Source of the DNA: a virus
IMG/VR virus record: IMGVR_UViG_3300021399_000161
Coordinates: 2,449-66,448 of that record
Direction: 5' to 3' (one strand)
Length of the DNA stretch: 64,000 bases
Shown here: piece by piece, positions 1,786 through 63,222 of the stretch
How positions within the stretch are numbered: the first letter of the stretch is position 1
Layout: each line of letters starts with the position of its first letter
The notes under the pieces: model-generated
What the model was told of the DNA's origin: nothing
The model's input: the letters and a program-made list of their open reading frames with translations, nothing else
Databases searched by the model: none
Program-made: the position numbers and the translations under genes

Positions 1786-3318
1786 ATGAGCGGGAATGAG
1801 CAAAACGAAGCCAGTCAAGGGAAGAAGCCAGCCAAGGCCGAGACTCCGAAGAGCACCCCCGTCAACATGGCAGAGGCCTACTTACGGTCCGGGCTGACGG
1901 CAGATGACTTCCTGACGGATACCTGGCCGGAGAAAATCAATATTGAACCGAAGGACATGGATCTGAGCATGAAGACGTTTCTGTTCCATAATCTGAATGC
2001 CAAGGGAGAACCGACCGGCGTCAATGACTATAGGATATATACCTATCTCACCCACACGCAGCACATAATCACATGCGGGAAGGTGGTGTATCTATATAAG
2101 AACGGTTATTACCAGGAAGACCTGAGTGAGACGCTGCTGACATCCCTGATTGGGGACTGTATGTTGGAGCAGTTCTATCGTTCAAACACTGTAGCCAGGG
2201 TGCATAAGATGTTCCTCCAGAGGAACGAACTTGTGAAGAGGCCGGAAGAGCTGAACCGATACAACAGCCGTTTCATCAATTTTCAAAATGGGATGTATGA
2301 CGTGACCAGAAGGAAACTGTATAACCATGAACCGAAGCTGCTTTCTACCAATCAGATACCGTGGGATTATGACCCGGCAGCAGACCACGGACCCGGAGAT
2401 GAAATTGAGAAATTCTTAGCTTATGCGATCCCTGACAAGGATGACAGGGAGATGCTTCTGGAGTACATCGGCCTGTGCTGCACAAAGGATGTCCATCAGC
2501 AGAAGATGTTGGTGATCTGCGGAGACGGCGGCACTGGAAAGAGCACCGTGATAAATCTCATTCAGAAGATCGTTGGGAAGCGGAACACTTCGAACGTGGC
2601 TATGTCAAAGCTGTCGATGAATTTTCAGGCAATCAGGATGATGGGGAAGCTGCTCAATTCCTGTGCCGATTTGGAAATTGACGCCCTTGATGACGTGACC
2701 ATGATCAAGAAACTGATAGGAGAGGACAGTATTTCGGATTCATACAAAGGCAAGGATATCATTTCATTCGACAACTATGCGAAACTGTTATTCTCGACAA
2801 ACGAGTTGCCGCTAGTTCGAAATGAGAAAACTGAAGGCTTCTATCGGAGACTTCTTATCCTCACCATGAACGAAAAGCCCGAGAAGCGCGATTCGAAGTT
2901 ACCGGAGAAGCTGGAAAAACAGATACCGTATCTGCTCCACATGGCAATGGAAGCACTCCACAGGATGTATGAACGTGGGTATATCATCGAGTCAGCCGGA
3001 TCCAAGGAGAAGGTCCGTCAACTGAGAAACGACAGTGACACCATCGAGGCATTTCTGTTTGATTGTTGCAAGACAGGGAATACTGAGAGCAAGGTAGAGC
3101 GCAAGATCCTGTATGACAGATACGTCGAATACTGTAAGGACAACGAGAGGCAGAGCCATCAGAAGAACAACTTCCTGAAGGCATTGAGGAACAAAGGCTT
3201 CCCGGAATGCAAAGTCGGTGGAACGTGGATGTTCAGAATGATAAATCTGAAGGAGGCAGATGGAAGTGGCTTCATGCCGGTCCCGGAAGGAGAGCCGGAG
3301 ATACCATTCCCGAGTTGA
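1786..3318 (+). CDS. P4/D5-family SF3 replicative helicase (phage/plasmid primase C-terminal domain type)
   Basis: Walker A VICGDGGTGKST; D5_N-like region upstream; 510 aa; RBS GAAAGAGGGGGA. Confidence 0.75.
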   Translation: MSGNEQNEASQGKKPAKAETPKSTPVNMAEAYLRSGLTADDFLTDTWPEKINIEPKDMDLSMKTFLFHNLNAKGEPTGVNDYRIYTYLTHTQHIITCGKVVYLYKNGYYQEDLSETLLTSLIGDCMLEQFYRSNTVARVHKMFLQRNELVKRPEELNRYNSRFINFQNGMYDVTRRKLYNHEPKLLSTNQIPWDYDPAADHGPGDEIEKFLAYAIPDKDDREMLLEYIGLCCTKDVHQQKMLVICGDGGTGKSTVINLIQKIVGKRNTSNVAMSKLSMNFQAIRMMGKLLNSCADLEIDALDDVTMIKKLIGEDSISDSYKGKDIISFDNYAKLLFSTNELPLVRNEKTEGFYRRLLILTMNEKPEKRDSKLPEKLEKQIPYLLHMAMEALHRMYERGYIIESAGSKEKVRQLRNDSDTIEAFLFDCCKTGNTESKVERKILYDRYVEYCKDNERQSHQKNNFLKALRNKGFPECKVGGTWMFRMINLKEADGSGFMPVPEGEPEIPFPS

Positions 3319-3905
3319 GATTTTTGGAAGTATGATTGCAGGTTCGAGTTGAGATTTCTTGAAGTGGTTTTCGAAATGAGATTTTTCCACGAATGTCTGA
3401 CCTGAATTTCGAAATGAGATTTTCCCAGGAGATCTACAATACAGATTTCGAAATGAGATTTCCGCAGGAATTCTGCTTCTGATTTCGATTTGAGATTTTC
3501 AAAGGCGAACCGGTAACCAAATAACGATTTGAGATTTCCTGAAGAACCTGACAAGCGAAAACAGATTTGAGATTCCGCAAAGAACCCGACAATCAAAACC
3601 CGATTTGGGATTCCCGTAGAACCTGGCAAACAAGAGCCGATTTGAGATTTCTAGGGCCGATATTCCATTTGGGATTTCCCGAAGTGAATGTCGATTTGAG
3701 ATTTCCGGAAGTAAACACAAAGTCAAAAATCAAATTGAGATTTTTCGAGGTAAACTCGAAGTCGAAAATCGATTTGAGATTTTTTGGAGCACACTCGAAT
3801 CCAAATTCCATTTGAGATTTTTCAAAGTGCCCCATAAACCCAATTTCCATTTGAGATTTTCGAAAGTAAAACCATACCCAAAATTCGATTTGAGATTTTT
3901 CAAAC
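3319..3905. repeat. Iteron cluster II: about 17 degenerate direct repeats of GATTTGAGATTTYCNNAAG at a period of about 35-40 bp
   Basis: Read directly; variable 14-25 nt spacers; unit lengths are not multiples of 3, so the overlapping ORFs 3567..3815 and 3593..4246 are artefacts. Confidence 0.7.
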
Positions 3906-3923
3906 CACTTGGAGGTGTAAACG

Positions 3924-4483
3924 TGAGAGTTGATATTGTCAATTATTCCGATAACTGGCAGGCCGTCAAGGATGCCGCAATGAACACAATTGGGATTGAG
4001 TCTGGCAAGTACCCTGACAGCAGCTGGAAGTGGAAAATGCTGAAGGCCGAACACAGCCCAATCAGATTGATCGAGCTGACAATTCGAATTGAGGATATCC
4101 CCTATTGGGTTTCGACGCATCTTGTCAGGCACAAAATCGGGGTGGAACATTTCGTCTCCACTCAGCGGACGGACCGCACTGGCATAAACCGAAATGAGTT
4201 GCCACAAAACGCCCCTGTCTGCCACACCATGAGGATAAACGCTCAAGCCCTGATTGCTATGAGCCGGAAACGGTTATGCCATCAGGCCGCACCGGAAACG
4301 CGTTCGGCGTGGTCTCAGGTCATCGCGGCGGTTCGTGAGGTCGAGCCGGAATTGGCCGCTTGCTGTGTTCCGGAATGCATCTATCGCGGCCACTGCCCCG
4401 AACTGAGATGCTGCGGAGCGTTCGGATCTGGCAAGTTCCAACTGAGACGCGCCGCATACATAAACGGAGTCGAGATGTTCTGA
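3924..4483 (+). CDS. thyX: Compact ThyX-like flavin-dependent thymidylate synthase homologue
   Basis: GTG start after GGAGGTG; RHK-X7-S motif (RHKIGVEHFVS) matches the ThyX RHR-X7-S signature; HSP..L.I and INAQALIAMSRKR blocks parallel T. maritima ThyX; Cys-rich C-terminus. Confidence 0.6.
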
Positions 4484-5575
4484 GGACACAGAGACACCCC
4501 GCAGAAGCCCGTCAGGAGGCCACACAGCCCCCGTCAGGCCGTCAGGGTGGATTTTATCCCGCCAACGGTCAGAAACCGTCTGGTGAGCCGCCAGGAGAGC
4601 CGAAGCCCCACACGCGCACCCGCGCGAGTTGCACCGGATTTTTTGAATTTGGGAAATTGAATACAAAAATAAACGCCGGTCAGAAAGTCGATTTTTTTCT
4701 GGCCGGTTTCGATTTTTGGAGATTTTTCTTGCGGAATGTCTGCCGATCTGGTGTTCGGACCTGGCAGCCCGGTCACCCCTTGGTCGGTCTCTGGGCGGCA
4801 CCTGGGATCCGTCAAGGCCCCCGAAAAGCGCCCCTTGCGCCCCTTGGAACCCGTCAAGGGAACCCGGAAGCCATGCCCGCCCCGCTTGAGACCTTCAGAG
4901 GATCCCCGGAAGAGGCCGCAAGCCGCCCTTACATCACTGGCCAGCCCGGAAGGACCTAAACCAGCCGGAAGCCTTGACCGGTCCGGAAGATCCGGAAAGC
5001 CTATAGGATGAGACCGGCAGCACGACAGGCCGCCGGACGCCCTACAGGATGAGGAAAGCACCCACGGCCAGCGCAAGCGGACCGAAAGAGACCCGGAAGC
5101 GCGACAGACCGCCGGAAGCCGCCAGGACTACAGGCAGACCGCCGGAAGAGGCAGACCCGAAAAAACTACAGGCAGACCGCACACCAGGCAGCCACCAAGA
5201 CAGACAGCCGCAAAGGCAGACCGCCGGACCTATAACCCGCCGGACATGGAAACCACGCCCCGCACGATCTGCCGCCGGACATGGTAAGACATCCGAACAA
5301 AACACCAGTAGCCGCCGGACATGATGAGACCAAGACGGCAGGCAAGCCGAAATCCTACTATATATAGAAGGCACCCGGACAGGATCCCCGGAAGCTGTGA
5401 CGGCCTTCTTCATGTCGGCAGATCCGGAAGCCGTGACGGCCTTCTTTCCTGTATGAGATCCCCCGAAAGTGTAAACCCTTCTATAGCAGATCGGAAAAAC
5501 GGAAACGTGAATGCTTTCTATATTATAGAAGCTATTCTTCTGAACTACCGCCCGAAACCTACTTATATATAGAAG

Positions 5576-5782
5576 TCACTCACCACCAGCGCCGGAAGAG
5601 TCCCGCGCGATCTTTTCCGCAATCGCTTCTTTTATATAGGTATTTACCCCTATGCCAGCAGCAGCCGCCGCCGGTTTCAAGATGTTTTCAAAGTAATCTG
5701 CCTGCAGATCTAGCGGCACGCGCTTGTAGTTTTTCGCAGCGTATTTCATAGACGCCCTTTTTTGTGCTTCACTCGTTGCCAA
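5576..5782 (-). CDS. Ribbon-helix-helix (Arc/CopG-like) DNA-binding protein
   Basis: KRVPLDLQADYFENIL...AAGIGVNTYIKEAIAEKI fits the RHH pattern; TTG start 8 nt after GGAGG. Confidence 0.55.
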   Translation of the reverse strand: MATSEAQKRASMKYAAKNYKRVPLDLQADYFENILKPAAAAAGIGVNTYIKEAIAEKIARDSSGAGGE

Positions 5783-5854: not shown

Positions 5855-5955
5855 ACACGTACATGCATATATTGCACAAAACACTGCTATAAATGTACGT
5901 GCATTTTAGCGAGTATTCCGATATTGCTATAAACGTACGTGCATAGTATAATAGC
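5855..5955. promoter_or_regulatory. Divergent promoter/operator region: 21-bp direct repeats YTGCTATAAAYGTACGTGCAT (5883-5903, 5923-5943) plus a partial third copy; the second repeat overlaps a -35 TTGCTA / 17 bp / -10 TATAAT promoter
   Basis: Read directly; lies between the RHH gene (-) and the rightward early genes. Confidence 0.55.
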
Positions 5956-8003: not shown

Positions 8004-8192
8004 ATGGACAACTACTACAAAGCATACGCGGCCCGATACAGGGCCGCAAGCGCCACACAGAGACAGGAAAGCCGCCAGCACTGGACAAGATGCCATGCGG
8101 CGAACATGGAAACGGGCAGAGACGATCTGATTATTTTTTCCGGTCAGATCCTGGCAGCGATTGCGGTTATAGATGCAGAAGAGAAAAAGTGA
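8004..8192 (+). CDS. hypothetical small protein
   Basis: RBS AGGAGAGAGAAGAGC before ATG. Confidence 0.4.
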   Translation: MDNYYKAYAARYRAASATQRQESRQHWTRCHAANMETGRDDLIIFSGQILAAIAVIDAEEKK

Positions 8193-8212
8193 AGAAGGGA
8201 GAAAGAGAAGCC

Positions 8213-8668
8213 ATGAAAAAATTTATTCAGATTGCAATTATTATTACTTGCGTTTTGTTTTCCGGCTACGTTGAAGGCCACGCCGCAACGATAACGAAAC
8301 AGGCAGCCAAGACCACCACGACCAAACCCACCAGGAAAACCGACAAGAAAATAATCAAAGATTTCTGCCGGAAGAATTTTCCCGGATACCGCGTCCGGAT
8401 CCGTCCAGCGGAAGAGACCACCGACGCGGAAATAGCAGCCAGGAAGGGGAAAAAGATTGTCTATGTTGACGTCTTCCGGACCCGCGCAACCAGCCGCACC
8501 GCCGGAAAGGTCACGACAAAAGGCCCCTTCTATGGGAACCGCATCAAGTACGCACACAAGGCCAGGAAGGGACAAAAAGTCACGGCTTATTATCTGTATA
8601 ACCCCGAAACCGGATACACAGACGATATCATAGCCACTGTCAGCGGCGGAAAGATCCGGACGGAATGA
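8213..8668 (+). CDS. secreted or lipoprotein-like protein with N-terminal signal peptide
   Basis: MKKFIQIAIIITCVLFSGYVEGHAAT signal sequence; RBS GGGAGAAAGAGAAGCC; followed by a terminator. Confidence 0.55.
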   Translation: MKKFIQIAIIITCVLFSGYVEGHAATITKQAAKTTTTKPTRKTDKKIIKDFCRKNFPGYRVRIRPAEETTDAEIAARKGKKIVYVDVFRTRATSRTAGKVTTKGPFYGNRIKYAHKARKGQKVTAYYLYNPETGYTDDIIATVSGGKIRTE

Positions 8669-8687
8669 AAAATGTAAATGCAGCCAC

Positions 8688-8722
8688 CAGGGGACGCGCA
8701 AGCGCCCCCCGCTTTTTATTGC
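8688..8722 (+). terminator. Rho-independent terminator
   Basis: GGGGACGCgcaaGCGCCCCCC hairpin followed by GCTTTTTATT. Confidence 0.6.
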
Positions 8723-9952
8723 CTTGACTGGCACCAGGAAAGCCACGAAACCCGCATAGAAACCGCCTAGCAGCCGCATACAGACAGCAGACAGACGGAC
8801 ATATAGAAAGACCCGGAAGCCGTCACAAAAGGCCGTAAAAGGCCATACAGGAAGCCGCCACAAAGCACCCCGAAAAGGCCATAGGCAGGACGGTAAAGAA
8901 GAACTCGAAACAGGCCATACAGGGAACCGCCGCAAAGCTGGACATGGAAAGACGCCAGGAAGATACCAGCCGCCAGGAGACAGAAGCCCGGAAGACTGGC
9001 AGCAGATCGGAAGACATGGAGACATGCCCGGAAAGCTGGAGACGGGACACAGACAGAAAGCCGGAAAATCTGCTATCAGACCGGCAGACACCAAAATCCA
9101 AAACCACCAACAGCGGGACCGCGTAAGCGGTCCTTTTCCGCGTCCAGGATCGCACCGAAATAGAATTTTCCCCCGCCTTGGATCCCGCCGGAATGAAATT
9201 TTTCCCCGCAAAAAGCACTCCAAAACCCCGCCGGAATTGGGGCAAAAGTGGTTGAAAAAGTGCCCCAAGACATGCCCCTAAACCCCGCCAAAAATGCCCC
9301 ATTGGGGCATCACACTCAGAACGTTAAAAGTTTAACAATTACAGAAAATTCGAATTGGGGCAAAAATACCCCTGTTAGGGGCACGTTTTTTTACCATTTG
9401 CCCCTAAAAATGCCCCATCAAAAACCCCGTAGTTATAGGCTTTTTTGGGGTATTGGGGCATAAGGGGAATATATATATAAGTTAAAAAAATTATGTATAT
9501 GTATAGTGCATGTATTACATATATAAAGAATAACGGCAAAAATCATGCCCTTTTTGCCCCTAGACTGAATAGGGGCATGAAAACATAGAAAAGTTGAGTG
9601 TGTGCCAACCAGGAAGAGAAGCGGCTTTCCTGGTATAGGCCATCCAGGGGAAACCACCTTGTCAGGCGTCACGATCTGCAAAGCAGCGGCCACCTCCTTG
9701 ACAGGCTTTACGATCTTGCGCGGTTCCTGCCTTGATCGGCTTATACGGTCCGCAAAGAGACTTCACACCCTGTCAGGGCATCCAGTCCGGATCCTGGATA
9801 CAGCTTGCCTTGCCAGGCTTTACGGTCCGGAATTTCCGTATACGTCCCAATGCGCCCCGCCGCACGTTGTACAATGGTTATATAGGGCACGCAAACCCGA
9901 TACAGGGCGCCTAGGACGCCCAAATAGACCACTACAGAAAGGATTGCAGACC

Positions 9953-10907: not shown

Positions 10908-11552
10908 ATGGCAAAGACTCAGTCGATAATTGAAGCAACCCGATATGGTCGAGGGCGCGAGTTTCACGAGGAAATACATGCCGCGATGGAAGGCGTCTGT
11001 GCGAACTGCGGCAGTACGAAGCACATAGAGTACCATCACATAGTGCCGTTGCGTCTTGGTGGTACAAACCGGCTGACGAATATTGTGCCCTTGTGTCATA
11101 GATGTCATGCGGCGGCTCACAACGGAAGGCACGTGAAGCATTATGCGGATCACCCGAAGGATAGCGGTCGGCCTGCGAAATGTGACAACGAGGCGGCGTT
11201 TGAGGCATTGGATCTGCTTGCTGCCGGGGAGATAGGTGTCCGTAGATGTAAGGCTCTCATGAACCTGTCTGATCGAACACAGCCGCAGAAAGTAACGCAG
11301 TATAGCATCTGGAGAGAGAAGCGTGGGGTTACGAGCCTTCGGAACTTCTTGGATGTAAAGATAACGAACAGTCCGATGTCGGTAGAAGACGGTTGCGTGA
11401 TTGGAGAGGTGTCATACGCTGACGGGCGCACAGAGTCTATCTGTTTCAACGACACGGGGTTGAATGACAGCACGGTATACAGGGTACGCAATCAGGGGTA
11501 TGGGTTCATGACCTGGGGAGACATAAAAAAGCGGCAATGGATGGCAGTGTGA
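10908..11552 (+). CDS. HNH endonuclease (terminase-associated)
   Basis: CANCGSTKHIEYHHIVPLRLGGTNRLTNIVPLCHRCHAAAH is a classic HNH motif with a zinc-binding Cys pair. Confidence 0.8.
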   Translation: MAKTQSIIEATRYGRGREFHEEIHAAMEGVCANCGSTKHIEYHHIVPLRLGGTNRLTNIVPLCHRCHAAAHNGRHVKHYADHPKDSGRPAKCDNEAAFEALDLLAAGEIGVRRCKALMNLSDRTQPQKVTQYSIWREKRGVTSLRNFLDVKITNSPMSVEDGCVIGEVSYADGRTESICFNDTGLNDSTVYRVRNQGYGFMTWGDIKKRQWMAV

Positions 11553-18087: not shown

Positions 18088-18273
18088 TGAAAAAACAGAA
18101 ACACATTATCTAGTGATTGAGAGACTGGGAGATGCAACCCGGTCTCTTTCTCTATACGAGTCAGAGAAGACTCCCAAAAACACGACAGCAACAAAAACAA
18201 AATCAATCGTCAGAGAAGACGTAAAAACACACCAAACGGTCAGAGAAGACCTGAAAACACAGGAGGACACAAA

Positions 18274-18804
18274 ATGGCAGAAGAGACACGCACTGAGCAG
18301 ACGCAGGAACCCGCAGAGCAGAAGACCGAACAGGAGATTCCCGAGGTTACGATGGAGTCCCTGAGTGCTGACAACGCAAAGCTGAAGGCGGAAATCGCCA
18401 AACAGAAACTTGCGCTGGACAAGGCGCTTCACAACAACGGTGAACTGACCAAGCAGCTCCGGGCGAAGATGTCCGCTTCCGAGCAGGAGGCAGAAGCTAA
18501 GAGAGAGGCCGAAGAAGCCCAGGCGAACCGCATCAAGGAACTTGAGGATTACAAGCGCCGGTCCGAGGCAAGAGAGAGGTACATGGCTACCATCGGTATG
18601 TCTGCGGATCTGGCGAAAGAAGCGGCTGAAGCAGAAGTATCTGGAGACATGGATGCTCTGGCGTCTGTGTACAAGAGACATCAGGAAGCCGCCATCAGAG
18701 CGAGTGAGGCTGAGTGGCTGAAGAAGCGTCCGATGCCGGAGACCAGCCGGGAGGAGCAGGCGGCAAAAGAGGATCCGTTTCTCAAGGGCTTCAATCAGGG
18801 CTGA
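18274..18804 (+). CDS. scaffolding protein
   Basis: Coiled-coil E/K/A-rich 176-aa protein between the head morphogenesis and capsid genes. Confidence 0.6.
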   Translation: MAEETRTEQTQEPAEQKTEQEIPEVTMESLSADNAKLKAEIAKQKLALDKALHNNGELTKQLRAKMSASEQEAEAKREAEEAQANRIKELEDYKRRSEARERYMATIGMSADLAKEAAEAEVSGDMDALASVYKRHQEAAIRASEAEWLKKRPMPETSREEQAAKEDPFLKGFNQG

Positions 18805-44647: not shown

Positions 44648-45049
44648 TGCTCATATCCTTTCTGATCCAAAACAGAACACTCAGCCCTGCCCCTGCACTG
44701 CACACGTTGCATGATGGGGCAGGAGAACATGGTGCATATCTTTATTACGCCCTCAAAATCATCGGCACGAATATAATCAATAGATACGGTTTGCTTTTTC
44801 CCTGTCTTCTTGCAGATGCCGGTTTCCGAAATCACTTTGCATTTCCTCCCAAATAAAAACCCGGTAACCATAAGGCTACCGGGTGTCTCTCATAGAAAGT
44901 CTCAGGATGGGCGGCGTATCCATCATCTCAGGTACCTTTTTGTCGGTGCGTCGGGAGCCTTTCCGACCTCTGAGACTTATCGGTAGCTTCAATATACTAA
45001 ATGTTTACTGCTCGGTCAAGGCAACGCCACTGTTGACATCATCCCCGTT

Positions 45050-45741: not shown

Positions 45742-45972
45742 GTGGCTTTTGACTATAGCAAACTCAGAGGAAGGATAGTAGAAATATTCCTTACTCAGTC
45801 AGCGTTTGCCGTTGCGATGGGCTGGTCCGAGAGAACCTTGTCACTGAAAATGACCGGACAGAGAATGTGGAAACAGAACGATATTATTAAGGCAGTAAAG
45901 CTGTTAAAAATTGATGAGTCAGAGATTCCGGTTTATTTTTTTACGGCAAAGGTTCAAAGAATTGAACAGTGA
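45742..45972 (+). CDS. Cro-like XRE-family regulator
   Basis: GTG start 8 nt after GGAAAGGAGG; 76 aa; divergent from the repressor gene. Confidence 0.6.
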   Translation: MAFDYSKLRGRIVEIFLTQSAFAVAMGWSERTLSLKMTGQRMWKQNDIIKAVKLLKIDESEIPVYFFTAKVQRIEQ

Positions 45973-45983
45973 GGTGGCGCAGA

Positions 45984-46892
45984 GTGATCAAGATAGACCA
46001 AGAGTTCCAGTCTCTCATCCCGGAGTTGTCTTCGGAGGAATACACGCAGCTTGAAAAGAACATCATCAAAGACGGTATCCGAGATGCCCTGGTGGTCTGG
46101 AAAACAAAGGCCGGAGAAGAAATCCTGATTGACGGACATAACCGCAAACGGATTGCTGATGCTCATCCGGGAATAAGATATGACATCAAGTATGTAGAGT
46201 TCCCTGACAGGGAAGCCGCCAAGAGGTGGATTATCCTCAACCAGTTCGGGCGAAGAAACCTGTCAGCATATGATCGGAGCGTTCTGGCCTTGAAGCTGAA
46301 ACCACTGATTGCGGAGAAGGCAAAGGAGAACATGCTTGCCACGCAGAACAATGAAAATGCATCAGCTTTTCAGAAATCTGATAAGCAGGTCAATACCGCA
46401 AAGGAACTTGCCAAAGCCGCCGGTGTCTCTCACGACACAATCCACAAGGTGGAAACAATCGAAAACAGCAATGACGAACGCCTGAAAGAGCAGGTACGAG
46501 CTGGGGACATTACCATCAACAAGGCATACCACATTGTCAAGGGAGACCCGCCGAACAAATCCATGTCCAAGTTGGTCAAGGAAATGGTAGAGGACGCCAA
46601 ACAGCAGCATCAGGAATTCGAAGAAGCCAAGGCAGAGAACGGGACGGTTTCCTTCTCGGATATCAAAGTCGATAAGGAAAACAAGAAGCTGATCGCCAGA
46701 GACACATGGCAGAAATGCATGAAGATGGGGTCAGCGATTGAGAGCGTAATCCTCAGCCGGGAAGCTGGTGATATTGATCTCGGCCTAGTGGCGTCCGAGA
46801 TGCCGGAAGAGGATCTGCAAATCCTCAAGGAAGCAATCAAGACATGGGCAAAATACCTGTCCCAGATTTACAAGGAGGTGTTCGATGAATAG
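45984..46892 (+). CDS. ParB-like nuclease-domain (ParB/Srx N-terminal) protein
   Basis: ILIDGHNRKRIA contains the ParB DGHxR motif; central HTH-like region AKELAKAAGVSHDTIHKVE; GTG start after GAGGTGG. Confidence 0.55.
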   Translation: MIKIDQEFQSLIPELSSEEYTQLEKNIIKDGIRDALVVWKTKAGEEILIDGHNRKRIADAHPGIRYDIKYVEFPDREAAKRWIILNQFGRRNLSAYDRSVLALKLKPLIAEKAKENMLATQNNENASAFQKSDKQVNTAKELAKAAGVSHDTIHKVETIENSNDERLKEQVRAGDITINKAYHIVKGDPPNKSMSKLVKEMVEDAKQQHQEFEEAKAENGTVSFSDIKVDKENKKLIARDTWQKCMKMGSAIESVILSREAGDIDLGLVASEMPEEDLQILKEAIKTWAKYLSQIYKEVFDE

Positions 46893-53949: not shown

Positions 53950-54709
53950 CGCAAACAATGCCCTGATTGCACTGGAACTGGCAAACAGGCTTCAGGTAAG
54001 CCCCCTGATGGTAATGCAGAACCTGTACGTGGTATATGGCCGTCCGGCATGGTCAGCTCAGTACATGATCGCCATGATCAACGGCTCCGGGAAATATGAC
54101 TTCGAACTTCAGTATGACGAAAAGACCGACAAGAACGGAAAGCCTTTCTCCTGTCAGTGCTGGACAGAAAAGAACGGCAGGAAAGTGTCCGGGCCGGTTA
54201 TCGACATGGATATGGCAAAGGCCGAAGGGTGGCTCGATAAGACCGGGAGCAAATGGAAAACCATGCCGCAGATGATGCTGAGATACAGAGCGGCTTCCTT
54301 CTTTGGACGTATGAATTGTCCCGAACTGACAATGGGCATCTACACACAGGAAGAGGTGGTAGAGATCGGCCCGGAAGACTACAGAGAGGTTGAGTCAGCA
54401 CCGCCGGTGGCGGAGGTCGAGAGAACCGTCAAGGAGGATATCTCAGCGAATGCCAACTCCGTCAGTTTCGAAGAGGCGGAAGTAGTTGTCGAACCGGCAC
54501 CTGCCCAGAAGCCGTCCCCGATGCCCGAACCAACGCCTGAAGCCGTGAAGGCCGCAGAGGCCATGCCTGAGACCCCGAAGAAGGGCAGGAAGAAAGCCGA
54601 ACCGAAGCAGGAACCGGCTCCCGCTCCCAAACAGGAAGCCCACAAACAGCCCGAACAGTCAGCAATCGACATTCCTGATGGCGCTTCAGATCCGGGGTGG
54701 TGGGAGTAA
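53816..54709 (+). CDS. recT: RecT-family single-strand annealing protein
   Basis: ALIALELANRLQVSPLMVMQNLYVVYGRPAWSAQYMIAMINGSGKY resembles RecT family; RBS AAAAGGAGGG; Pro/Glu-rich tail. Confidence 0.75.
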   Translation: MASTAIATRNENTSVFSSSEAWGLATKMASSLAQSTIVPKEFQGNANNALIALELANRLQVSPLMVMQNLYVVYGRPAWSAQYMIAMINGSGKYDFELQYDEKTDKNGKPFSCQCWTEKNGRKVSGPVIDMDMAKAEGWLDKTGSKWKTMPQMMLRYRAASFFGRMNCPELTMGIYTQEEVVEIGPEDYREVESAPPVAEVERTVKEDISANANSVSFEEAEVVVEPAPAQKPSPMPEPTPEAVKAAEAMPETPKKGRKKAEPKQEPAPAPKQEAHKQPEQSAIDIPDGASDPGWWE

Positions 54710-61454: not shown

Positions 61455-62009
61455 ATGATCTATGACGAGAAAGACCGGGCACTCAAGGCATACTGCCGTC
61501 AGTTTGCGATGTGTGATGAATGTCCGATTGACACAGAAATGCCGAACCACAAGTGTGGCCAGGGGTACACATTCGGGTATCACGCCTTCAACTCGGCAGA
61601 CCTTAACGATATGTTTGCGATAGCCTTTGCTGGGATGTCAGATCAGGAAGTGAAAGAGATGTATCTGGATGAAACACCAGACCAGACGGAGGCCAACCCT
61701 GACAGTCAGACGGCTGACCAGACAGCGAAAGCGGACGCGGGAAAGCCAGAACTGTCAATGGTTCCGAAAGAAATCATTTACTCCATCGAGCGTGTACGCC
61801 GGTTTGGGAATCAGAAATACGGTTCTCCCGACAACTGGCGGAATGTGAGCATTGACCGATACTGGGAGGCGTTCCTACGTCACACACTGGCGGCATGGAA
61901 CAATATTGAGGCGGTAGATCAGGAAAGCGGGCTGTTGGCAATTGAGCATTGTGCCTGCAACCTGGCTTTCATTCTGGAGCTGATGAAGGAGAAACGCAAC
62001 AATGATTGA
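61455..62009 (+). CDS. hypothetical protein with N-terminal Cys cluster; C-terminus possibly MazG/NTP-pyrophosphohydrolase-like
   Basis: CDECPIDTEMPNHKC; IERVRRFGNQKYG...AIEHCACNLAFILEL; weak call. Confidence 0.35.
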   Translation: MIYDEKDRALKAYCRQFAMCDECPIDTEMPNHKCGQGYTFGYHAFNSADLNDMFAIAFAGMSDQEVKEMYLDETPDQTEANPDSQTADQTAKADAGKPELSMVPKEIIYSIERVRRFGNQKYGSPDNWRNVSIDRYWEAFLRHTLAAWNNIEAVDQESGLLAIEHCACNLAFILELMKEKRNND

Positions 62010-62086: not shown

Positions 62087-62302
62087 ATGAGGCTGGTAAA
62101 CGAAGAAACCGGAATGGAAATCGGAGTTGCGAATATGCCGGGCAGGGTTAAACCCTGTCTGATAGTCAAAACGGATAACGTGACAACCAAATACGCCTCA
62201 TTCAACAACGATTTTGCGGCCGACCGGTTTATGGAATTGTTATCGGATTTTGTGGGGGCGCATAGCGATGAAGATAGGCCTGATAGATGTGGATGGTCAT
62301 AA
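62087..62302 (+). CDS. hypothetical small protein
   Basis: 71-aa ORF. Confidence 0.3.
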   Translation: MRLVNEETGMEIGVANMPGRVKPCLIVKTDNVTTKYASFNNDFAADRFMELLSDFVGAHSDEDRPDRCGWS

Positions 62303-63222
62303 TTTCCCGAATCTCCCACTGATGAAGCTGTCAGCATGGCACAAGGCACAGGGAGACAGCGTGGAGTGGTATCAACCGTTGTTTTCCGGGCATCTGGATA
62401 GTGTGTATATGTCCAAGGTATTCAGTTTCACGCCTGATTATGAATACCCGGTAAATGCGGATCAGGTAATCAAGGGCGGGTCTGGATACTGCATCGACCT
62501 GGTGGGCGGGAAAGAAACCTATCACGCCGAGAGAGACAGACCACTGCCTGATGAGGTTGAGCATATCTATCCAGACTATAGTCTTTACCCTGACCTGACG
62601 AAGGACACGGCTTTCGGCTTCCTGACAAGGGGCTGCCCCCGTGGATGTGGATTTTGCCATGTTGCAACAAAAGAGGGGGGGGCGTTCACACAAAGTATCA
62701 GAGTTACGGGAATTCTGGAACGGTCAAAAGAACATCATCTTATGCGATCCGAATATACTGGCCTGCCGGGAACATCCGAGACTTCTTCGGCAGTTGGCAG
62801 ACAGCAAGGCAAGGGTGAACTTCAACCAAGGATTAGACATCCGGCTGATCAATGACCGCAATCTTGACCTGATACGACAGATACGCCTTGACAGCATCCA
62901 CTTTGCATTTGATCGATGGCAGGACAAAGATATCATAGAGCCGCGCCTGAGAGCGTTTGCGGAAAAGACAGGCTATGACCGGAACAAGGGAAGGGTGATG
63001 GTTTACATCCTCTGCAACTATGACACGACACTTGAGCAGGACATTTACCGCATCCAGTTATGCAGGGAATTGAATTTCAGTCCGTATCCGATGATATATG
63101 ACAAGGCGCATTGTGATCCGGTCTACAGGCAGCTACAAAGGTGGTGCAACAACTTTATTTTTTGGAAAGTACAGACGTTTGAGGAGTACAGGAAACATGG
63201 GAACCAACACAGCAAAAGATGA
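62268..63222 (+). pseudogene. radical SAM protein gene interrupted by a frame change at a G8 homopolymer (62675-62682)
   Basis: CPRGCGFC is a CxxxCxxC radical-SAM motif in ORF 62214..62855; the protein continues in the next frame (ORF 62641..63222); removing one G restores a single ORF of about 318 aa. Confidence 0.55.

Follow-up and report, generated by a model that had tools for sequence, protein, structure and literature searches.

A 64,000-nucleotide stretch of viral DNA (positions 2,449 to 66,448 of IMG/VR record IMGVR_UViG_3300021399_000161; hereafter the window) carries, at 4484-5575 between a short ThyX-like gene and a leftward ribbon-helix-helix (RHH)-like regulator gene, a tract that is poor in thymine on its plus strand and dense in short GCCGGA-type motifs. 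Sequence comparison identifies this tract as a non-coding cis element that a clade of rumen siphoviruses conserves within its replication module. It is non-coding, keeps its place, composition and motif among relatives, is co-inherited with a helicase gene and an iteron array, and turns over by insertion and deletion; it matches no known RNA or DNA element. As a possibility well short of likely, we tentatively favor a strand-polar array of protein-binding repeats that serves the replication module in an accessory role, for which we infer the occupancy of the sites by protein, the identity of that protein and the effect of the complex. Relatives were collected as syntenic loci fetched via homologs of the RHH and ThyX proteins (labels L001-L295) and stem from independent assemblies (ENA, Logan, IMG/VR and JGI samples) of different studies.

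Base composition and motif content of the tract

Between 4850 and 5340, the plus strand consists of 29.5% A, 34.8% C, 28.7% G and 6.9% T, compared with a mean T content of 21.3% (standard deviation 4.6) over all 200-nt intervals of the window, in agreement with the T depletion described by a first-pass annotation made from the letters alone. T falls below 9% per 200 nt at four places only, the largest being 4888-5384 (minimum 2%) and 8717-9135, with two short spots besides at 18150-18410 and 54459-54690. AT skew reaches 0.73, and in the skew profile of the whole window other intergenic regions are without comparable skew. Relative to the window mean, the shift on the plus strand amounts to C in place of T, and the T that is left in the core lies mostly within recurring sub-motifs such as CTAYAGG, CATGG and GATGAG. 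Avoidance of promoters or translation signals fails to explain this composition, because −10-like TANNNT and stop trinucleotides are only about halved in the tracts and not reduced at all in L008, and a promoter-proof or stop-codon-free spacer was discarded as a rationale on these grounds. Stop and ATG trinucleotides are likewise only about halved.

The annotation had described a T-depleted tract of 1.1 kb. A T-poor core is real at 4850-5345, but the span is not uniform and is a composite of five parts:

4610-4645, plus strand: conserved GC palindrome CGCGCACCCGCGCG, followed by AGTTGCACCGG and a run of T (blastn against L016 and L010, by eye elsewhere)
4675-4707: 13-bp hairpin at the left edge of the element, preceded on the plus strand by an A run and followed by a T run; analogous hairpins occur in relatives
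4711-4850, plus strand: short arm of opposite skew, A-poor (A 13.7%) and G+T-rich (skew profiles of 11 loci)
4850-5345, plus strand: T-poor core with GCCGGA[AC]/CCGGAAG, CAGAC(C), CTAYAGG and CCGGACATGG sub-repeats
5345-5575: regulator-proximal zone (T 23.7%) with four (C)TTCTATA..TATAGAAG palindromic boxes at 5363, 5478, 5524 and 5568

The hairpin, previously placed at 4677-4710, is confirmed at 4675-4707 with terminator-like features, and since a T run follows and an A run precedes, it can terminate in both directions and looks like a bidirectional terminator. Shuffled sequence yields 8.85 ± 2.8 copies of CCGGAAG, whereas the window holds 38. Strand asymmetry and motif density are both far above chance. 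Eleven plus-strand copies fall within 4864-5598, and CCGGA is present 18 times in 4840-5600, where the three reverse-strand matches all lie inside TCCGGA palindromes. The tract is thus dense in CCGGAAG as first described, but the motif kept across relatives is GCCGGA[AC], and CCGGAAG reads as the window's local variant of this core. Two 23-bp direct repeats noted earlier are real and are parts of a 2.1-copy 36-nt tandem at 5388-5461. In the regulator-proximal zone, TATAGAAG is present in four copies, with a single copy in the rest of the window, and the palindromic box is shared by L003, L012, L016 and L294.

A second tract had been claimed at 8736-9240, and its presence is confirmed:

8736-9240, plus strand: sister T-poor tract (T 6.5% in 8736-9120) with CCGGAA, CCATACAGG and GGACATGG

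The sister tract contains six copies of CCGGAA, is preceded by a plus-strand terminator (8700-8714) and is followed by a GGGGCA/TGCCCC zone and terS. The two tracts (4850-5345 and 8736-9125) are separated by 3.9 kb, and each lies in a gap between plus-strand operons, directly 3' of a plus-strand terminator. They share composition and vocabulary, with no blastn match between them at E<=1e-3. Patches of the same vocabulary are found near terS in L008 (12850-13050) and L016 (8370-8560); at its end, the L016 patch has a near-consensus promoter (TTGACG-17-TATAAT) directed toward terS. In both loci the patch lies upstream of the terS promoter rather than downstream of it. Beside the sister tract, an AT-rich stretch at 9233-9580, just upstream of terS and the HNH gene, holds about 12 GGGGCA/TGCCCC boxes, and boxes of other sequence occupy the equivalent place in L003 (GGTGCA/TGCACC), L008 (GGGGAA/TTCCCC) and L016 (AGGGAA/TTCCCT). 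These boxes are probably a terminase-binding (cos/pac) region that covaries with terS.

Absence of coding potential

The claim that the tract is non-coding holds. Period-3 power is 0.7-3.1 in six tracts compared to 3.7-25 in coding controls, two of which are T-poor spots (the control at 18150-18410 being part leader). A tblastn comparison of all six frames with the relatives' tracts found no frame-specific conservation, the weak matches being equal across frames; no ribosome-binding site was found for the open reading frames (ORFs) of the tract, and gene callers left the region without a gene in L001, L003, L008, L294 and L295. Close relatives are separated by indels of 1, 8, 11, 32 and 37 nt, none a multiple of three. 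Each of these results stands against a hidden gene for a low-complexity disordered protein, K/R/P/E/Q-rich on the plus strand or G/P/R/L-rich on the minus strand. The scarcity of stops and ORFs of 91-374 amino acids (aa) on either strand would fit such a gene, and one caller, in public assemblies, did report genes for a 159-aa ORF of the sister tract (8823-9302) and a 255-aa ORF of L293 (3619-4386). Both are on the minus strand, as is a third ORF at 8144-9268 (374 aa). However, a strand without A has few stop codons, which makes long minus-strand ORFs a by-product of composition, and those over the tracts are probably artifacts. A protein-coding explanation is therefore scarcely credible.

Conservation and turnover among relatives

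The tract is present in the window and in seven distinct loci, with two further weak versions and two loci cut by contig ends. The relatives share one layout, in which the ThyX stop is followed by the terminator hairpin, the short A-poor arm, the long T-poor arm, CTATATATAGAAG palindromes and finally the stop of the leftward regulator gene. An assembly artifact, raised earlier as a possible explanation, is excluded because independent assemblies from several studies carry the tract in this same layout. In the skew profiles of 11 loci, a neutral stretch is followed by the short A-poor arm and a long T-poor arm of 200-700 nt; total length varies among relatives from about 200 to 900 nt, and in L293 T falls to a minimum of 0.5% per 200 nt.

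The underlying sequence is far less stable. In L003, with a helicase 98% identical to that of the window, the left 900 nt align at 91-96% identity with indels up to unit size, and 250 nt beside the regulator gene are swapped for unrelated sequence carrying five CTATA(T)ATAGAAG boxes in 37-38-nt units. The indels between the window and L003 measure 1, 8, 11, 15, 32 and 37 nt, the largest being about one repeat unit. Substitutions in the core comprise 19 A<->G, eight A<->C, four C<->G and six C<->T changes, a weak signal (n=39) suggesting that T is kept rare between the two. In L293, L294/L295, L092, L012, L008 and L016, where the helicase is 56-65% identical, blastn aligns the GC palindrome only. 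This element at 4610-4645 is the sole intergenic part that can be aligned between distant relatives (blastn: L016 and L010), and it was recognized by eye in L008, L012, L092, L094, L293 and L294; the counterpart of AGTTGCACCGG in relatives is the palindrome GGTGCACC. A loose likeness of the 4610-4645 palindrome to the CRISPR type I-C repeat was also noticed.

Across six tracts, GCCGGA occurs 31 times against 2.7 expected from dinucleotide shuffles and is present in all six, and CGCCGGA occurs 18 times against 0.8 expected. The motif has a single orientation, with 8-23 copies per tract. Other words common to the tracts are CACCAGG, GATCC, CAGAC, CTACAG and TATATA.

No similar DNA was found in GenBank phages in either near or distant search mode, and no close relatives were found in IMG/VR by helicase peptide. 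A pattern scan of IMG/VR for three GCCGGAM at short distance returned mostly coding Pro-Glu linkers or simple tandems. T-poor intervals of human-gut ThyX loci were discarded as candidates, as they proved to be genes encoded on the minus strand of bacterial contigs. One unrelated IMG/VR contig (L231) carries at its end, at 11371-11507, at least 11 perfect 13-nt tandem copies of GCCGGACAGGACA; this tandem directly follows a terminator-like hairpin and uses the GCCGGAC and CAGGAC vocabulary of the tracts in simple tandem form.

Such turnover raises the question of whether the tract has any function. It could be a self-propagating minisatellite derived from a T-free founder unit, or the footprint of strand-asymmetric mutation in a convergent non-coding gap, for example A-to-G change on a strand that is often single-stranded, as in vertebrate mitochondrial DNA. 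A length ranging from about 200 to 900 nt, indels up to unit size, the module replacement and the lack of alignable sequence are all consistent with this explanation, as is the replacement of plus-strand T by C relative to the window mean. The G+T-rich/A+C-rich split also resembles the asymmetry between the heavy and light strands of mitochondrial DNA. However, the layout, the skew switch, the core motif and the CTATATATAGAAG boxes persist at 56-65% helicase identity despite full turnover, T-gaining changes are under-represented between close relatives, and the other intergenic regions of the genome are unskewed. To our knowledge, all mutational AT skews in bacteria and phages are far below the 0.6-0.7 reached here. 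We consider a functionless tract unlikely.

Association with a self-loading helicase replicon

The tract lies downstream of a replication module that resembles those of Staphylococcus aureus pathogenicity islands (SaPIs):

1786-3318, plus strand: gene for a D5-like, SaPI5 PriRep5-like self-loading initiator-helicase (Pfam D5_N, DUF5906 and Pox_D5; RFX-like winged helix at the C terminus; PHROG DNA primase)
3311-3903, plus strand, one orientation: iteron array of about 15-16 ATTTGAGATTT repeats with a period of 38-39 bp
3923-4483, left of the tract: short ThyX-like gene, after the iteron array

The helicase is homologous to SaPI5 PriRep5 (PDB 7OLA, E 4.8e-16). Iterons of the ATTTGAGATTT type (GAGATTT) are also found at 1481-1592, occur in every tract-bearing relative (as the variant GAGTTTT in L293), and are present in two copies upstream of the L008 terS promoter. 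Among approximately 170 loci with a similar ThyX, the tract was found only where the D5-like helicase and at least five GAGATTT-type iterons lie upstream. Conversely, loci that combine this helicase (56-65% identity) with such iterons carry the tract wherever sufficient sequence is available. Loci with an equally similar ThyX that lack this helicase (L013, L014, L015, L018, L009 and others) have neither iterons nor tract, and distant helicase homologs of 36-47% identity in Clostridia genomes and metagenome-assembled genomes are accompanied by no iterons and no tract.

These observations split an earlier suggestion that the tract is a lytic origin or an unwinding element. Co-occurrence with a self-loading helicase replicon favors an origin-associated element, but a role as the lytic origin itself is not supported, as the iterons at 3311-3903 are more canonical and a GC-rich tract is ill-suited to unwinding. 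The position of the GAGATTT array directly 3' of the helicase gene makes it the better origin candidate, and this array is probably a SaPI-type origin or a binding array for the winged-helix domain. A protein-binding array, also proposed at first pass, remains viable for the tract.

The module is ordered as PriRep5/D5-like helicase, probable ATTTGAGATTT iteron origin, ThyX and tract. In the model that we tentatively put first, the tract would act as DNA, offering 10-25 short GCCGGA[A/C]-core sites in a strand-polar array. A protein encoded by the module or the host would bind duplex sites such as GCCGGAAG, and the bound sites would form a long nucleoprotein complex lying about 1 kb from the origin, on one side of it; a smaller copy of the array would lie beside the terS/cos region. 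The predicted role is accessory replication control, in which the array may serve as a second initiator-binding locus like P4 crr or P1 incA, as a copy-control locus or as a polar barrier to forks or transcription that makes replication one-sided.

Several findings are consistent with such an array. Close relatives differ by indels of 11-37 nt and by module swaps, as iteron and centromere arrays evolve, and GCCGGA and CGCCGGA are enriched across six tracts that are otherwise unalignable. The short arm of L292, L092 and L094 carries the inverted motif TTCCGG, comparable to the opposite directions of PriRep5 iterons. Two loci carry one motif, the L016 and L008 patches lie upstream of the terS promoter, and no RNA signals were seen.

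Other findings weigh against it. A duplex-binding array needs no T-free spacers, yet every relative has them, and the substitutions appear to keep the spacers T-free (A<->G 19 vs C<->T 6). The position of a SaPI-type origin, 3' of the helicase gene, is already held by the GAGATTT iteron. The window's own short arm has no clear inverted motifs, so that the inverted arm is weak there, and an AT-rich center is missing. CCGGA positions are irregularly spaced, and neither helical phasing nor any other periodicity exceeds what randomly placed positions give; spacings of 35-40 nt reflect local duplications. In addition, the co-occurrence could be plain co-inheritance within one clade, and the partner of the array is a candidate protein only.

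SaPI PriRep5 is a self-loading initiator-helicase with a winged-helix C-terminal domain that binds 5-6-nt iterons, and the SaPI origin comprises 6-12 iterons immediately 3' of rep, in opposite directions and with an AT-rich center (PMC9371898). The tract shares with this system a PriRep5-homologous winged-helix helicase, many short 5-6-nt repeats that are co-inherited with it, and opposite arms in some relatives. It differs in lying approximately 1.5 kb past the helicase stop, beyond the GAGATTT array and ThyX, and in being GC-rich, 0.5-0.9 kb long and composed of up to about 24 irregularly spaced sites with T excluded from one strand. A second parallel is offered by P4 ori/crr and P1 incC/incA, in which two separated iteron loci are bound by one initiator; here, too, two loci 3.9 kb apart carry one short motif beside a P4-family/D5-type primase-helicase. 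However, the P4 and P1 iterons are 8-19 bp long, well conserved, regularly spaced and of normal base composition, in contrast to the short irregular motif of the tract, for which the helicase is only a candidate binder.

Evaluation of the tract as RNA

Exclusion of one base from both motifs and spacers is most naturally a single-strand constraint, and the biased substitutions between close relatives also point to selection on a single strand, either as RNA or as exposed DNA. The tract may therefore act as single-stranded RNA, in the form of an untranslated sponge or scaffold, largely free of sequence constraint, with many ligand sites for an RNA-binding protein, a possibility that we rank close behind the DNA array and regard as doubtful on balance. 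In one version, the regulator mRNA would carry an A-poor 3' extension of about 0.9 kb, reaching to 4707-4675 and displaying UCCGGC/CUUCCGG sites; in the other, a U-poor plus-sense read-through RNA would display GCCGGA sites. The minus-sense extension is the likeliest transcript, because the regulator transcript should enter the tract and would meet no convincing terminator until it reaches 4675-4707, where the hairpin carries a U run in this sense as well. Read from sequence, the regulator gene has an extended −10-like promoter and a ribosome-binding site, and its 3' extension into the tract is the RNA most likely to exist. Given the opposite skew of the short left arm, a transcript entering from either flank would be A-poor, in keeping with the convergent gene layout of 11 loci. 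Repeated short motifs, poor conservation and turnover of repeat units are typical of sponge RNAs, and a second T-poor plus-strand leader, with three copies of GTCAGAGAAGAC, is present at 18160-18250.

On the other hand, consensus scans of the window, L294, L008 and L016 detected no plus-strand promoter in the interval from the terminator to the T-poor arm. Neither tract is preceded by a consensus plus-strand promoter, the minus strand to the right of the sister tract yielded none either, and the terS-proximal patches of L016 and L008 lie upstream of the nearest promoter. The earlier suggestion of a structured non-coding RNA was not supported. Rfam gave no match in the tract at the gathering score or at E<=1 (elsewhere in the window, skipping-rope RNA only), and the fold z-scores of the core against shuffles are −1.08 for the plus strand and −1.32 for the minus strand. 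Folding the two arms as one long hairpin gave non-significant z-scores of +0.44 (L092) and +0.26 (window). There is no known RNA-binding partner for GCCGGA/UCCGGC, and the mere halving of stop and ATG trinucleotides implies that avoidance of translation signals is not the driver.

A more specific RNA proposal, a CsrA/RsmA sponge of the CsrB/RsmZ type, had been prompted by GGA-rich loops. GGA is indeed dense in the tracts (1 per 11-46 nt), and CUAUAGGAUGAG and CUACAGGAUGAGG at 5003-5060 resemble the CsrA consensus RUACARGGAUGU obtained by systematic evolution of ligands by exponential enrichment. However, GGA is enriched only because it is part of CCGGA, and in all of the eight tracts the CsrA-type A(N)GGA stays at its expected level (z −0.9 to +1.2); GCC, rather than A-N, is the flank that is conserved. 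Hairpin-loop presentation and excess folding are both absent, none of the CsrB, CsrC or Rsm families matched in Rfam at E<=1, and consensus scans showed no plus-strand promoter that would make the tract a discrete promoter-terminator unit. The CsrA antagonist known in Firmicutes is a protein, FliW, and our literature search on thymine-free tracts or phage CsrA sponges returned nothing relevant. A CsrA sponge is very improbable. In more general terms, protein-sponge RNAs such as CsrB/RsmZ (for CsrA) and CrcZ (for Hfq/Crc) share with the tract many short motifs in a poorly conserved, repeat-built non-coding stretch, and a plus-sense RNA of the tract would be A-rich, U-poor and weakly structured; the tract differs from them in lacking A(N)GGA enrichment, stem-loops, an evident promoter-terminator unit of its own and an Rfam match.

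Other candidate explanations

The single orientation of the motif is also compatible with a Chi-like array that counters exonucleases or protects DNA ends. Host AddAB/RecBCD would enter at the right (cos) end, the end likely to be injected first, and read the motif on the 3'-ended strand. Such an array would protect the early anti-defense operon and the replication module and limit CRISPR spacer acquisition. Every copy is on the strand whose 3' end falls at the presumed right end of the genome, upstream of terS and HNH, one tract adjoins the cos-like repeat zone, and the operon between the tracts contains an AcrIC5-like gene in one relative. GGAAGCG/GAAGCGG-like versions in L008 resemble the S. 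aureus Chi sequence, GAAGCGG, although this may not be the Chi of the host, and the cos position is itself deduced. Unlike Chi, the tract motif is clustered in two non-coding tracts and is neither dispersed nor enriched elsewhere. Outside the tracts CCGGAAG occurs 19 times against 14.3 expected (z 1.8) and GCCGGA 47 times against 40.8 with no unusual skew, and with z at 1.8 or less the motif is not a genome-wide polar signal. Since any base (A, C, T or G) may follow GCCGGA, the core is more degenerate than a Chi site would allow, and neither the T-free spacers nor the co-occurrence with the helicase would be explained. We regard a Chi-like role as quite improbable.

Further candidates were rejected or weakened. 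An array of T7/SP6-type promoters was suggested by the likeness of CTATAGAAG and CTACAGG, but the 42 ORFs scanned included no single-subunit RNA polymerase (the tape-measure protein and a tail protein account for all very large ORFs of the window), so the likeness of CTATAGAAG to SP6/T7 promoters is coincidental. An RHH-plus-heptad centromere of the omega/ParR type is weakened by the absence of a partition NTPase among the 42 ORFs scanned and by L012, in which the tract stays although an XRE-type helix-turn-helix (HTH) gene takes the place of the regulator; moreover, regulator-specific boxes lie in the divergent promoter instead of the tract. A ParB-like protein is encoded at 45969-46892 (phrog_4715, E 2.8e-11, no Pfam match) and is a possible candidate binder of one repeat array. 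A ToxI-like type III toxin-antitoxin RNA or a CRISPR array was set aside, as there is one 2.1-copy 36-nt tandem only and the other units are degenerate; no toxin or cas gene adjoins the tract in the ORF list or in profile scans.

Base replacement (a Z-genome) was considered as the cause of T exclusion and is unlikely because no PurZ was seen and only a MazZ-like domain is present; DNA modification of some kind is conceivable. The MazZ-like dATP/dGTP diphosphohydrolase N-terminal domain (PF18909) lies at 61455-62009 and is followed by a radical-SAM-like protein (phrog_9298) at 62214-62855; with ThyX, and a dUTPase in L294, these appear to form a nucleotide-metabolism set. A restriction-site decoy was likewise dropped, as CCGG is not avoided genome-wide and the total avoidance of GCCGGC leaves the tract unexplained. 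Window-wide, the palindromes GCCGGC (0 vs 22 expected), AAGCTT (0 vs 11.5), CTGCAG (1 vs 15.3) and CCGCGG (1 vs 8.7) are avoided, which suggests host restriction systems of those specificities. GCCGGC is never formed despite plentiful GCCGGA, and CCGG itself is at no deficit.

Neighboring genes and genome context

The window is a temperate siphovirus-like genome. It encodes terS, the large terminase, an HNH endonuclease, an SPP1-type portal, a MuF-like protein, the tape-measure and tail proteins, an endolysin, two tyrosine recombinases and HTH regulators, together with a Rad50/SbcC-like ATPase, a RecT-like protein and SSB. To the right of the tract are two features:

5576-5782, minus strand: RHH-like regulator gene (68 aa, TTG start; phrog_13890, with a weak PF10723 match on homologs)
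5856-5952: divergent promoter/operator region with three ACGTAC(A/G)TGCAT boxes and a plus-strand promoter TTGCTA-17-TATAAT (inverted-repeat and promoter scan)

Given its orientation, the regulator transcript would run into the tract. The ACGTAC(A/G)TGCAT boxes are probably the regulator's own operators; the box differs per relative, being TTCGTACGAATA in L008 and L016, TAACGTTA in L010 and ATAGACATATTGCAC in L012. Rightward of the divergent promoter come six small plus-strand genes, a terminator and then the sister tract. In L295, a 39-aa gene at 5407-5526, between the regulator gene and terS, has a precomputed match to AcrIC5 (PF22147). As read from these gene contents, the small genes between the tracts may be an early anti-defense island, with the RHH/HTH gene as an Aca-like regulator.

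Elsewhere in the window, three exact copies of GTCAGAGAAGAC at 18160-18250 lie in a T-poor stretch of about 130 nt ending in AGGAGG-ATG. The gene downstream of this stretch comes next after the portal and MuF genes, and the stretch may serve a head gene as leader or regulatory repeat. A full-length match to skipping-rope RNA (RF02924; 72 bits, E 1.5e-15) is located on the minus strand at 44898-44977, in the lysogeny/early region.

Significance

The tract is most like iteron or centromere binding arrays or repeat-built sponge RNAs, and it fails defining features of each family tested. No single reading covers all the evidence, the exclusion of T from the spacers being the chief fact left over. 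It is conceivable, though slightly more doubtful than either the binding array or the RNA sponge, that the tract exemplifies a new class of phage cis element defined by base composition, selected as a one-base-excluded single strand, tied to the module and duplicated beside the packaging site. In one form, it would be an A-free (minus-sense) or U-free (plus-sense) untranslatable RNA showing 10-25 UCCGGC/GCCGGA sites; in the other, the self-loading helicase-primase would track along this strand, or prime it, on leaving the origin. Across all the explanations weighed here, the probability left over falls to something not considered.

Near-complete one-strand base exclusion over 0.5-0.9 kb of non-coding DNA is a property for which we found no description in phage genomes in the literature or Rfam, and here it is maintained through complete sequence turnover. 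If the tract is a protein-binding array, it would be a second cis element for the poorly understood replicons of self-loading superfamily 3 helicases, which are widespread in gut and rumen phages and satellites; if it acts as RNA, it would be a phage sponge or scaffold. The combination of T-free skew and GCCGGA beside a D5/PriRep helicase and GAGATTT iterons gives a searchable signature, and spurious ORF calls on the A-free strand become recognizable in annotation. The tract also offers a handle on how uncultured rumen phages arrange replication, early anti-defense expression and packaging.

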